Notes: generated by a model not told the origin, from the sequence alone. A stretch of DNA of 64,000 nt from an uncultured Gammaproteobacteria bacterium (GCA_964650355.1 CAZYTL010000009.1:413-64412), one strand, 5' to 3'; positions 131 through 5,422 are shown, counted from the first letter of the stretch. Program-made: numbers and translations.

Positions 131-676
131 ATGGCAATTAAAGTAGATATGAATCTAAAATTAGCTCCGTTAGTTTTCATTATCTTTGGAGTATTGATGA
201 GGTTATTGCCTCATCCACCGAACATGGCGCCTATAACCGCAATCGCTTTATTCAGCGGAGTATATTTGAATAAAAGATACGCGGTAATATTACCAATTGT
301 AGCTTTGTTGATCAGTGATTATTTTATTGGTTTTTATGGCTGGACCATGCTGTTTGTTTATGGCGGGTTTGTGCTAGCCGGAGTAATCGGGATGTGGCTA
401 AAGAGACATAAAAGACCGGTTTACATTTTAGGCGCCAGTCTGGTGAGTTCGTGGCTGTTTTTTATAATCTCCAACATGGGAGTGTGGCTGACTACATCTA
501 TGTATAGCAAAAATCTGTCTGGCTTAATCCAATGTTATGTGATGGCGATCCCCTTCTTGCGCAATACCATTCTGGGTGATTTATTATTCACCACTACGCT
601 GTTTGGGCTCTACGAGCTATCTAAGCGGTTGGCCAAGACCTGGTTACCGGAGAAATATTTTGGTTGGGTTTACTAA
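131..676 (+). CDS. Integral membrane protein, ~5 TM; possibly ECF-transporter S-component-like, unassigned
   Basis: 181-aa ORF with multiple hydrophobic segments (PLVFIIFGVLMRLL, ILPIVALLISDYFIGFYGW, FVLAGVIGMW); no enzymatic motif. Confidence 0.5.
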   Translation: MAIKVDMNLKLAPLVFIIFGVLMRLLPHPPNMAPITAIALFSGVYLNKRYAVILPIVALLISDYFIGFYGWTMLFVYGGFVLAGVIGMWLKRHKRPVYILGASLVSSWLFFIISNMGVWLTTSMYSKNLSGLIQCYVMAIPFLRNTILGDLLFTTTLFGLYELSKRLAKTWLPEKYFGWVY

Positions 677-1620: not shown

Positions 1621-1851
1621 ATGCCCAATAACCACTCAAGCACCAAACTTATCCAGCTTAAGGCCAAACAGCAGCAGTTGCAAGAAAAACTTGATCAAAA
1701 ATTGCGACAGCTAGGCGGTTGTGGAGGAATGGGCAGAATGCCAGCGGATCGATTGGAAATTGAAAATACCATTAACGTGCTTGAGTCTAGATTGAAAAGT
1801 CTGCAAGCAGAAATTGAACAAATAAAAGAGTCTTTAGACGAGACGTCGTGA
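1621..1851 (+). CDS. Small coiled-coil protein (76 aa), paralog of 2852-3079
   Basis: Heptad-rich LIQLKAKQQQLQEKLDQKLRQLGG...ENTINVLESRLKSLQAEIEQIKESL; aligns with the 75-aa ORF at 2852 (LLQLKLKEQRLEEKLKQKLKTIGD...ENEIELLKIRLNQIQTEIYKLEKDL). Confidence 0.55.
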   Translation: MPNNHSSTKLIQLKAKQQQLQEKLDQKLRQLGGCGGMGRMPADRLEIENTINVLESRLKSLQAEIEQIKESLDETS

Positions 1852-1870
1852 CTCAACTGATATCCTCCAT

Positions 1871-2827
1871 ATGAATAACTTTAGAAAACCATTGAAAATA
1901 GATGAAATCGGAATTAAGGCTTACTCCCTGGAAATTCTCAAAGATCAGGGATTGTTTGACGAAAAATTATATATTTCAGCAGATAAACTTTCGAAGAAAG
2001 AGCTGGTTCATAATTTACAAAAGGCCGGTTTTCAGGACGGCGAAAAGATGTTTGTCAGATTTTCAAGCCCTGATACGTCAATTAAATTACCGAAAAAAGG
2101 ATGTAACGGATTTGACACTTTGTATAGATTTGTAAACGAGCAGACTAAAAAAGATTTAGTGTTAATTGTTCATTCTTTTATCTTGGGGAAGTACGGAGGC
2201 ACGATTACCCGAGTCGGTGACGAGTTAGTGATGGAATTTATCAAAGGCGGTTGGAATGCCGATTACTCCATAAACGTGGATACGGTTACGTTTAAAGACG
2301 GTCTCTCAAAGTGGTATGTCTATCAAGGTCACAGGACGGTTCCTTATGTTGTTAACGGGCAAGTGATTCAGAAGAGAATCGGACCGCTGGAGAGGAAGAC
2401 AATTCAAAAGATTTTTAGTAGTGTTTCGCCACAAATAGGAAAAATTACAAAATTGTTGGATAACGAGTTTAATTCGCTTGAATTCCTAATCGATTCTAAC
2501 TATTGTTTAAAACCCATTGAATTGCAGAATATTGCCACTGTTGACCATCAGTTAAAGATTAATAAATGTCCTGATAAAGTATTTGAATTGAAAACGCCCC
2601 ATGACTTGAAGAGATGGGATAGGACAACTGATTTATTAATATCAATTCCGGCGGACATGGACCGGGCGGATGAACTCCTCCTGGTTATTAAGGAGATAAA
2701 AAATTTTGTATCTCACGTGTACATTAACTATGGAATTCTCTCGCATCCGGCAATTTTATTGAGAGAAGAGGGAATTAAGGTAGAAAGAAAGATGTCTAAC
2801 TATCGATTAATGACGTTACCTTACTGA
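1871..2827 (+). CDS. Hypothetical protein; weak resemblance to the PEP-utilising enzyme N-terminal ATP-grasp-like (PPDK_N) domain
   Basis: 318-aa ORF; IGIKAYSLEILKDQGL and FVRFSSPDTSIKLPKKGCNGFDTLY loosely resemble PPDK_N motifs (GGKxAxLxEL; VRSSATAEDxPxASFAGQxET); no swivel-His domain. Confidence 0.55.
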   Translation: MNNFRKPLKIDEIGIKAYSLEILKDQGLFDEKLYISADKLSKKELVHNLQKAGFQDGEKMFVRFSSPDTSIKLPKKGCNGFDTLYRFVNEQTKKDLVLIVHSFILGKYGGTITRVGDELVMEFIKGGWNADYSINVDTVTFKDGLSKWYVYQGHRTVPYVVNGQVIQKRIGPLERKTIQKIFSSVSPQIGKITKLLDNEFNSLEFLIDSNYCLKPIELQNIATVDHQLKINKCPDKVFELKTPHDLKRWDRTTDLLISIPADMDRADELLLVIKEIKNFVSHVYINYGILSHPAILLREEGIKVERKMSNYRLMTLPY

Positions 2828-2851
2828 CAAATTATTGAATCTAAATCCCGA

Positions 2852-3079
2852 ATGAGAAGGCCATTGACTACATCGGATCAATTGTTGCAATTAAAACTGA
2901 AAGAGCAACGACTTGAAGAGAAGCTAAAGCAAAAGCTCAAAACTATTGGTGATGCAGATCATCCCATGGAATCCAGATACCAAACCGGCAGATTTGATTT
3001 GGAAAACGAAATAGAGTTACTAAAAATCCGGCTTAATCAAATTCAAACAGAGATTTACAAATTAGAAAAAGATCTCTGA
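2852..3079 (+). CDS. Small coiled-coil protein (75 aa), paralog of 1621-1851
   Basis: Same architecture and alignable sequence as the ORF at 1621; flanks the other side of the 318-aa gene. Confidence 0.55.
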   Translation: MRRPLTTSDQLLQLKLKEQRLEEKLKQKLKTIGDADHPMESRYQTGRFDLENEIELLKIRLNQIQTEIYKLEKDL

Positions 3080-3202: not shown

Positions 3203-3844
3203 TCACAGATACGCTTTGATTAACTGCATAATCTGCTCGTCATTTAAGTTTTTGTCGCTCAAATTCAATTCCTGATTCCACTGGTCCCAGAATTCCACGT
3301 CCGTTATGGTTACCAATTTTGAAAGACTTAGGTTTTTCAAAACAGTTTTTAGATTTCTTTGATTATTTAAAGTTTCTACTTCGAAATTGTATTTATGGGA
3401 TTTGCCATATTGATGGCTTAGTTTAATTTCAAAATCCGGTTGTTCAAAGACGTAATTATCATATTGCATGAGATGACATGGCTCGGCAGGCGGCAAGAGG
3501 CGGCGTAAAATTTCGTATATGCTAAAAATCTGTTCAGATTCAGGCGGCAACTCAACGTGTTTTTCCGTGCGGTCCCATTGAGTGGTATTGTCCCACTTAC
3601 CTACTTTCTGCATAATTTCAGCTTTTCCATCCGTAATGCGGATTCGAGTATCAACCTCGTTCATCTCATGATTCCAAAAGGAAAAGGACAATCGCTTATG
3701 ACGGCTGGGCTTGCCGAATCGCCCACTAAACAGTCGTAAAAATTTCTCAAATTGTTCTTTGGTTAATTGCCCCCAGGCTTCCTGTTCTAACATGGACTGA
3801 TTATACTTCACTTTTGTGCTATATTCATAAAAGATGAAATTCAC
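3203..3844 (-). CDS. Hypothetical protein (213 aa)
   Basis: Long ORF with no recognisable motif; start overlaps the divergent Nudix gene start by 11 nt. Confidence 0.55.
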   Translation of the reverse strand: MNFIFYEYSTKVKYNQSMLEQEAWGQLTKEQFEKFLRLFSGRFGKPSRHKRLSFSFWNHEMNEVDTRIRITDGKAEIMQKVGKWDNTTQWDRTEKHVELPPESEQIFSIYEILRRLLPPAEPCHLMQYDNYVFEQPDFEIKLSHQYGKSHKYNFEVETLNNQRNLKTVLKNLSLSKLVTITDVEFWDQWNQELNLSDKNLNDEQIMQLIKAYL

Positions 3845-4958: not shown

Positions 4959-5025
4959 ACCACAATGAAAACATGATTTTCCACTCCGGGGCTTATTTGT
5001 ATTTACACCTTGGGATAAAGTTATA

Positions 5026-5101
5026 TGGTGACCCCACCGGGATTCGAACCCGGGTTTTCGCCGTGAGAGGGCGATGTCCTAAACCGCTAGACGATGGGGC
5101 C
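5026..5101 (-). tRNA. tRNA-Glu (anticodon CUC), CCA encoded
   Basis: Reverse complement ggccccatcgtctagcggtttaggacatcgccctCTCacggcgaaaacccgggttcgaatcccggtggggtcacca folds as a cloverleaf; anticodon loop cuCUCac. Confidence 0.85.
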
Positions 5102-5218
5102 ATGATAGTTTCAAGTTGTTAGTTTCGAGTTCCAAAGCAAGCTTAGAGAGTTATTATTAATAGTTACTTTCCGAACTTGTTGTGAAACCAATAACTGGAA
5201 ACTAGCGCCTGATTTTTG

Positions 5219-5300
5219 TGCCGGGGACAGGACTTGAACCTGCACGCCGTGAGGCACATGGTCCTAAACCATGCGTGTCTGCCAATTTCACCACCCCGGC
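5219..5300 (-). tRNA. tRNA-Leu (anticodon UAG), class II with long variable arm
   Basis: Reverse complement gccggggtggtgaaattggcagacacgcatggttTAGgaccatg + variable arm + ggttcaagtcctgtccccggca; the 65-aa + ORF over this region is spurious. Confidence 0.8.
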
Positions 5301-5422
5301 GGGAATCTTACATATTTTACCATGTTTTGGCCTTCACTAGAATTCGGGAGGATGATAAGATTAGGTTAGAAGGGAGTTCTGCTTTTAATTTGTTAATTTA
5401 CAAAGACAGGTGATGGTGTTGT

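Follow-up and report, generated by a model that had tools for sequence, protein, structure and literature searches.

The window analysed here is a 64,000-nt stretch of DNA assigned to an uncultured Gammaproteobacteria bacterium (GCA_964650355.1 CAZYTL010000009.1:413-64412), and the subject of this study is a trio of plus-strand genes at positions 1621-3079. A 76-residue protein (A) is encoded first, followed by a 318-residue dikinase-like protein and a 75-residue protein (B), and the genes are separated by spacers of only 19 and 24 nt. Because minus-strand genes border the trio on both sides, it forms a compact, self-contained same-strand unit, which is probably co-transcribed. An earlier note on this DNA had described two paralogous coiled-coil proteins bracketing a protein with a weak resemblance to the N-terminal ATP-grasp domain of phosphoenolpyruvate (PEP)-utilising enzymes (PPDK_N), and the three open reading frames (ORFs) were found as given there, with A and B flanking the central gene on the same strand. 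The features discussed below are listed in Table 1.

Table 1. Features of the trio, its surroundings and the loci of fused relatives (window positions unless a locus is named)
Feature	Position	Strand	Remarks
ORF A	1621-1851	+	76 aa
A-type loop LGGCGGMGRMPADRL	about 1711-1755	+	within ORF A
318-aa ORF	1871-2827	+	dikinase-like protein
Divergent PPDK_N-like ATP-grasp domain	1892-2560	+	residues about 8-230
Putative swivel phosphohistidine domain, carrying GILSHPAILLREEG	2576-2824	+	residues 236-318; beta-alpha repeat
Codon CAT for His292, predicted phospho-carrier	2744-2746	+	from alignment and invariance
ORF B	2852-3079	+	75 aa
B-type loop IGDADHPMESRYQTGRFDLE	about 2945-3004	+	within ORF B
Winged helix-turn-helix (HTH) and NUDIX protein, 242 aa	738-1466	-	Pfam NUDIX 2e-12, HTH_45 2e-6; divergent orientation
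213-aa protein	3203-3844	-	runs towards the end of gene B; unmatched in Pfam and NCBIfam
Second NUDIX hydrolase, 148 aa	3834-4280	+	Pfam NUDIX 3e-11
tRNA-Glu(CTC)	5026-5101	-	Rfam
tRNA-Leu(TAG)	5218-5300	-	Rfam
Loci of fused forms	L019 1546-3486; L018; L020 4610-5612; L024 4001-5722		proteins P0036-P0174

Domain architecture of the 318-residue protein

The 318-residue protein has 25 close homologs (mean column identity 60%), for which the only name given is 'hypothetical protein, Candidatus Woesebacteria'. An AlphaFold2 model computed with an alignment of homologs as input reached a predicted local distance difference test score (pLDDT) of 86 and a predicted template modelling score (pTM) of 0.81. 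When this model was compared with the PDB using Foldseek, the top matches were to the ATP-binding domain of rifampin phosphotransferase (RPH; 5hv3 and 5hv6, E≈2e-7). PEP synthase (2ols) ranked eighth, the beta subunit of succinyl-CoA synthetase (SCS) and ATP-citrate lyase were also among the top ten, and D-Ala-D-Ala ligases and other ATP-grasp enzymes followed further down. At the level of profiles, alignment by hhalign of the N-terminal domain with the Pfam-verified PPDK_N of fused relatives (described below) gave a probability of 97% and an E-value of 4.8e-11 across 196 columns, and reproduced the motif series GxKA, VR(F/S)S and E-x-x-P-G. The resemblance to the VRSS motif of PPDK_N pointed out in the earlier note was recovered in the same way, as the match VRFSS...LPK. 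The family-invariant residues of the grasp domain are K16, R63 (in the VRFS motif), E122, W128, D137 and R155, with R63 and D137 showing 100% invariance in 145 representatives. It is at the levels of fold and profile, and at these only, that the protein qualifies as a PPDK_N-type ATP-grasp protein. Scans with PADLOC and PHROGs gave no family above threshold, and when the PDB was searched by sequence and by profile, with the protein or its family as query, only spurious SoxS/Afp1 matches or none came back.

The C-terminal part of the protein contains the segment GILSH292PAILLREEG, corresponding to the family motif GxLSHPAxxLRExG, in which His292 is invariant in all 145 family representatives. 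In the mobile swivel domain of the dikinases (PF00391), the catalytic His stands in the motif G-G-x-[TS]-x-H-x-A-[IV]-x-x-R-E-x-G-[IL]-P. The comparison set for this region consisted of four PEP-utiliser His-domain sequences verified against PDB entries 2ols, 9dae, 8a8e and 5fbs, and hhalign placed His292 on His422 of PEP synthase (2ols) and on His825 of RPH-Lm (Prob 91%, E 9e-7), which are the catalytic phosphohistidines of those enzymes (PMC4844700). The PPDK_N enzymes characterised so far all use a phosphohistidine carrier (PMC4844700, PMC12167813), and since PF00391 was not detected in any of the fused relatives scanned, the His292 segment is the only candidate for such a carrier in them. 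The statement in the earlier note that the protein has no swivel-His domain is not supported by these comparisons. We regard the C-terminal domain, for which AlphaFold2 gave a model of pLDDT 80 when it was folded alone, as a probable, albeit unproven, swivel phosphohistidine domain. Together the grasp-like and His domains cover all 318 residues; a third, acceptor-binding domain of the PEP/pyruvate TIM-barrel or rifampin-binding type is absent from the protein, as is any further Pfam domain.

The wider enzyme family and its fused members

An exhaustive hidden Markov model (HMM) search of 1.84 billion representative sequences retrieved 183 relatives at E<=1e-3 (clusters at 50% identity), 145 of them with the full-length module. 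Forty-nine of the latter are stand-alone proteins of about 310 residues and 84 are extended by 200 residues or more. A canonical PPDK_N domain was identified in eight of ten extended relatives scanned, and PF00391 in none of the ten. The fused PPDK_N is located N-terminally, or C-terminally as in the 646-residue protein of locus L019, and most relatives of the 318-residue protein are fusions of 570-790 residues that combine it with the divergent grasp domain and the His module and therefore contain two grasp-type domains per protein. Their own grasp-like domain is highly conserved (K16, T-V-R63-F-S, L-P-R75-x-F, E122-H-V-P-G-x-W-E-S-D, D137, R155, H204, D208, N217-I-R219), and this strong conservation suggests that it binds a second ligand, most likely the acceptor.

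Approximately 30 fused relatives add a C-terminal region of ∼190 residues with a HIT-like motif (ERGRAxFCTSGF...AHAHI), and separate genes for HIT, S-adenosylmethionine (SAM)-methyltransferase, 2H/LigT and large Metallophos proteins adjoin the fused forms. Taken together, the fused forms and these neighbours have the appearance of a dikinase system, so far undescribed, that is directed at nucleotides or RNA ends. In the remaining loci the immediate neighbours of the enzyme gene encode PMT_2 and GT2 glycosyltransferases or DHH, NUDIX, CYTH and PHP phosphoesterases, and in the family as a whole phosphoesterases recur as neighbours or fusion partners (NUDIX, DHH, HIT, 2H/LigT, CYTH, PHP and Metallophos). 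Two rare proteins, P0079 (1005 aa) and P0110 (948 aa), join PPDK_N and the module to an N-terminal Metallophos nuclease-like domain or to a SIR2_2 domain; PADLOC matched the Metallophos type to 'Effector endonuclease' (4e-23, PDC-S60), and the SIR2_2 type weakly to PDC-S65 and Aga SIR2. Such fusions may hint at a use of the family in defence systems. Loci L017, L018 and L019 are labelled as metagenome-assembled genomes (MAGs) of Gammaproteobacteria or Ignavibacteriaceae; the genes they carry (PMT_2, DHH) and an identity of 46% to proteins of Woesebacteria point to mis-binned contigs of the candidate phyla radiation (CPR).

The residues that vary among the stand-alone forms raise the question of whether the protein of the window is a degenerate pseudo-enzyme that has lost dikinase activity and retains a ligand-binding or regulatory role, with the small proteins as unrelated neighbours. 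Within the Woesebacteria stand-alone subgroup, variation affects positions that hardly change in the fused relatives: H204 is replaced by or alternates among E, H, D and A, N217 among N, K and E, and R219 among R, H, L and Q, and there is neither a PPDK_N partner in the window nor a third substrate-binding domain in the protein. However, His292, R63, D137, S65 and R298 are invariant in 49 of 49 stand-alone representatives, with K16, R155 and E299 nearly so, and conservation is strong in the 25 close homologs. We therefore consider such a loss of activity improbable.

Small proteins A and B and their linkage to the enzyme gene

Proteins A and B share 39% identity across 69 residues (BLASTP E=1e-13). 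Their Smith-Waterman score of 122 compares with 30±5 for random shuffles (z=18) and with 33±5.5 for shuffles that preserve the heptad register (z=16), and since it lies far above the latter, the similarity reflects homology and not a shared coiled-coil composition. Each protein has two helices with hydrophobic residues at the a and d positions of the heptads around a non-helical loop, and both are predicted to form helix-loop-helix coiled-coil hairpins. The glycine-rich loops quoted in the earlier note, GGCGGMGRMP and GDADHPMESRYQTG, were both located in the proteins, so that its description of A and B as paralogous coiled coils stands. The loop consensus is LGGCGGMxRxPADRL for the A type and IGxADxPMxSRYxTGRFDLE for the B type, and these are the best-conserved segments across orthologs, which points to a binding function. 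The LGGC sequence of A resembles a lipobox, but a lipoprotein signal was ruled out by inspection since no signal peptide precedes it.

Coding signal, the absence of which the earlier note had named as a ground for rejecting its hypothesis, is evident in both genes. The proportions of nonsynonymous (pN) and synonymous (pS) differences are 0.22 and 0.88 for the ortholog pair of A and 0.20 and 0.80 for that of B, with synonymous sites saturated in both cases; judged by these substitution patterns, A and B are genuine coding genes under purifying selection. Synonymous sites are also saturated between A and B themselves, and the duplication is therefore old. Searches of 5.8 billion proteins yielded a family of only five members: A of the window and P0029 (67% identity to A, with the loop conserved) on the one side, and B of the window, P0028 (67%) and P0175 (58%), with a nearly unchanged loop, on the other. 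Neither A nor B reached the gathering threshold of any Pfam or NCBIfam model, the best being FlaC_arch with 19.9 bits versus a cutoff of 27.8, and the named coiled-coil families tried (FlaC_arch, Prefoldin, Seryl_tRNA_N, DUF6262, Lmo0654-like and others) were all below threshold. PADLOC and PHROGs gave marginal coiled-coil matches only, and the small-protein profile found only noise in the PDB. A scan of metagenome contigs with the small-protein alignment caught coiled-coil word patterns, with nothing confirmed, and a scan of genome contigs with a single pattern returned four loci.

The linkage of the small genes to the enzyme was assessed at 16 further loci that encode members of the enzyme family (stand-alone forms in L001-L009, L017 and L025-L027; fused forms in L018-L020 and L024). 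No homolog of A or B was found in any of them, either by tblastn (E<=1-10) or when all six-frame ORFs of 40 residues or more were searched with a profile, and no family member contains a fused A- or B-like segment (a Rosetta-stone test). Conversely, the B-type gene for P0028 (locus L010) follows a gene for a Cyt-b5-domain protein, and contigs of up to 5.4 kb around it carry no enzyme gene. The start of the gene for P0175 overlaps the stop of a seryl-tRNA synthetase (SerRS) gene by 4 nt and the gene converges on one for a radical-SAM MiaB-like protein (L023 1-872; L021/L022 2-387). The upstream neighbour of B thus differs in three lineages (enzyme, Cyt-b5-domain gene and SerRS). None of the L010 neighbours and no SerRS gene is present in the window, and there is therefore no hidden shared context. 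SerRS carries an antiparallel coiled-coil arm at its N-terminus, and a very weak Seryl_tRNA_N match (E 0.3) was obtained for protein A. In a single case, on a 639-nt contig (L016), an A-type ortholog is followed, after a spacer of the same 19 nt, by the N-terminus of an enzyme whose fragment is 52% identical over 64 residues to the protein of the window, which is, marginally, its closest relative. The earlier note had taken a consistent lack of such adjacency in other genomes as evidence against its hypothesis; this lack was found for B and not for A.

These data bear on the resemblance to substrate-enzyme cassettes pointed out in the earlier note. A partner or substrate cassette would be restricted to one Woesebacteria sub-clade, and in it A and/or B would be substrates or regulatory or adaptor subunits of the enzyme, with their loops, for example, being phosphorylated by His292~P. 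The tight same-strand arrangement with its short spacers and opposite-strand surroundings, the repeated A-then-enzyme order in L016, and the conservation of the loops, that of B containing His, Ser, Tyr and Thr, are all in keeping with it. Against it, the loops of A and B share only G32, R39 and R44 and have no Ser, Thr, Tyr or His in common, and the lack of a shared phospho-acceptor residue makes it improbable that they serve the enzyme as substrates or precursors. The other 16 enzyme loci lack the small genes and no fusion links them, B-type homologs lie beside a Cyt-b5-domain gene or SerRS on contigs without an enzyme gene, and the known relatives RPH, PEP synthase and HpeHI phosphorylate small molecules (PMC4844700, PMC12167813). 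The cassette is weakened by these findings and we consider it unlikely. A bolder version, decidedly doubtful in our view, is that the ∼310-residue protein is the smallest self-sufficient phosphohistidine dikinase and would be protein-directed in this Woesebacteria sub-clade, with A and/or B docking via their loops and being phosphorylated or otherwise regulated by His292~P, thus constituting a new CPR module.

Duplicated small ORFs beside an enzyme of ATP-grasp fold are also reminiscent of ribosomally synthesized and post-translationally modified peptides (RiPPs), where A and B would be precursors that an ATP-grasp ligase modifies or cross-links, as in graspetides and microviridins, and the graspetide ligases PsnB (7drp, E 4e-5) and MdnC (5ig9, E 7.5e-5) are among the Foldseek matches. 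However, grasp domains of the RPH and PEP synthase type score higher, the N-terminal domain is homologous to PPDK_N, and these ligases, members of another grasp subfamily, lack a His carrier domain, whereas the probable carrier domain with its invariant His in the 318-residue protein suits phosphotransfer and not ligation. Graspetide precursors consist of a leader and a core, while A and B are amphipathic helices conserved from end to end that show no division of this kind and lack a Thr/Ser-Asp/Glu-Lys core motif. Neither a protease nor an exporter is encoded next to the trio, and the linkage to the enzyme is not conserved. A RiPP pathway is thus largely refuted.

The flanking of the enzyme gene by A and B is most likely a matter of local gene order, with the small genes as probably incidental neighbours; they do not appear to be general partners or substrates of the enzyme, and the most that A could be is an accessory specific to the lineage.

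Among the genes surrounding the trio (Table 1), the HTH_45 and NUDIX gene has a counterpart in locus L025 (2213-2911, plus strand), where it lies directly upstream of, and co-directional with, the gene for a distant enzyme homolog (P0022), and enzyme homologs in L009 and L027 are also flanked by NUDIX genes. A comparison of the 213-residue protein with the CYTH protein encoded beside the homolog P0017 revealed no significant similarity, and a relationship between the two was rejected. A DUF6580 membrane protein is encoded at the start of the window (131-676, plus strand; Pfam E 2.5e-50), and listed ORFs that overlap the tRNA genes (4973-5413) are spurious. The two tRNAs were the only Rfam matches, with no riboswitch or leader found. 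A consensus scan for promoters and terminators gave no plus-strand site in or beside the trio and a few minus-strand matches, the number of which was not above that in shuffled sequences.

Proposed activity and significance

Taking these results together, we propose that the trio is restricted to one Woesebacteria-like (CPR) lineage and that its central protein represents, in minimal and stand-alone form, a branch of the PEP-utilising/dikinase superfamily (PPDK, PEP synthase, RPH and HpeHI) that has not been described before, with the small proteins as incidental neighbours; we hold this explanation as a whole to be probable, with moderate confidence. By analogy with the swivel mechanism of RPH and PEP synthase, His292 would be transiently phosphorylated and would hand its phosphoryl group to an acceptor. 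In the superfamily, ATP is converted to AMP and Pi and the beta-phosphoryl group is passed to the acceptor via His~P (PMC4844700), and it is this scheme that is applied here by analogy. Since about two thirds of the relatives fuse the module to a separate canonical PPDK_N domain, the grasp-like domain of the module itself would most likely be the acceptor-binding site. In the stand-alone form, either its own grasp domain would take ATP or an ATP-grasp partner would be encoded elsewhere. Given the phosphoesterases that recur among the neighbours and fusions, a nucleotide-like small molecule is the probable acceptor. The phosphotransfer chemistry, the roles of the domains and the nature of the acceptor are what we infer from these comparisons.

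RPH-Lm (PDB 5hv1, 5hv3, 5hv6 and 5fbs; PMC4844700) is the best structural match of the model (Foldseek E 2e-7). RPH, which like the 318-residue protein has a PPDK_N-type ATP-grasp domain, carries its catalytic His at the C-terminal end, where the 318-residue protein has the predicted carrier His292, and the two His motifs can be aligned (GGLMTH825GAVIAREYG in RPH and YGILSH292PAILLREEG in the window), but the sequences are only about 12% identical and RPH, of about 865 residues, has a rifampin-binding domain of ∼430 residues between the grasp and His domains that is missing here. PEP synthase and pyruvate phosphate dikinase (2ols, 1kbl) share the PPDK_N-type grasp fold and the motifs GxKA, VRxS and E-x-x-P-G, and the His292 motif aligns with theirs at His422. 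Unlike them, the 318-residue protein lacks the TIM-barrel PEP-utilizers_C domain, carries its His domain at the C-terminus and not in the centre, and is about 40% of their size. A third comparison is with the two-component small-molecule dikinases (HpeHI of Rhodococcus, phenylphosphate synthase-like), which offer a precedent for a split enzyme: the ATP-grasp protein HpeI is separate from HpeH, which contains the acceptor-binding and swivel-His domains (PMC12167813). With most of its relatives being fusions that include a canonical PPDK_N, the 318-residue protein could be an HpeH-like half, although an HpeI-like PPDK_N gene is neither adjacent nor present in the 64-kb window, and its acceptor-side domain has a grasp-like fold and not an RPH-type rifampin-binding-like one. 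In mechanism, by analogy, the protein would be most like RPH, PEP synthase and the HpeH half of HpeHI.

Several observations weigh against this explanation. No Pfam or NCBIfam model matches the 318-residue protein, with PF00391 giving no match and PF01326 none at E<=10; of the PPDK_N/ATP-grasp resemblance pointed out in the earlier note, it is the relationship seen by Foldseek to RPH and PEP synthase and by hhalign to PPDK_N that holds. The canonical Glu/Gln/Arg positions of PPDK (Mg/phosphate) are occupied by E204, E217 and Q219 in the protein of the window, compared with H, N and R in the fused relatives, and ATP binding by its grasp domain is therefore uncertain. A tblastn search with the C-terminal half of the L019 protein found no canonical PPDK_N gene in the window or in the loci of stand-alone homologs. 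The alignment of the His motif covers 25 columns only, and the C-terminal domain, when modelled alone, retrieved no swivel domain by Foldseek (best E 0.66, with weak matches to TRiC and SCS-beta), so that homology to swivel domains rests on the motif and the domain architecture. With respect to the small genes, the tight spacing of the trio and its opposite-strand borders argue for co-expression, and the gene order in L016 is compatible with a real link between A and the enzyme.

The demonstration that A and B are not conserved partners of the enzyme means that the locus need not be misread as a RiPP or substrate cassette, and the pair adds a lineage-restricted protein family. The main interest appears to lie in the unannotated enzyme family and not in its bracketing by A and B, which appears incidental. 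The enzyme family is sizeable (183 clusters) yet lacks a Pfam or NCBIfam model, and in it a minimal, probable His-carrier domain is paired with a divergent second grasp domain of PPDK_N-like type. If these proteins are active, the dikinase superfamily would gain a new, probably nucleotide-related acceptor and a minimal form of ∼310 residues in the reduced genomes of the CPR.

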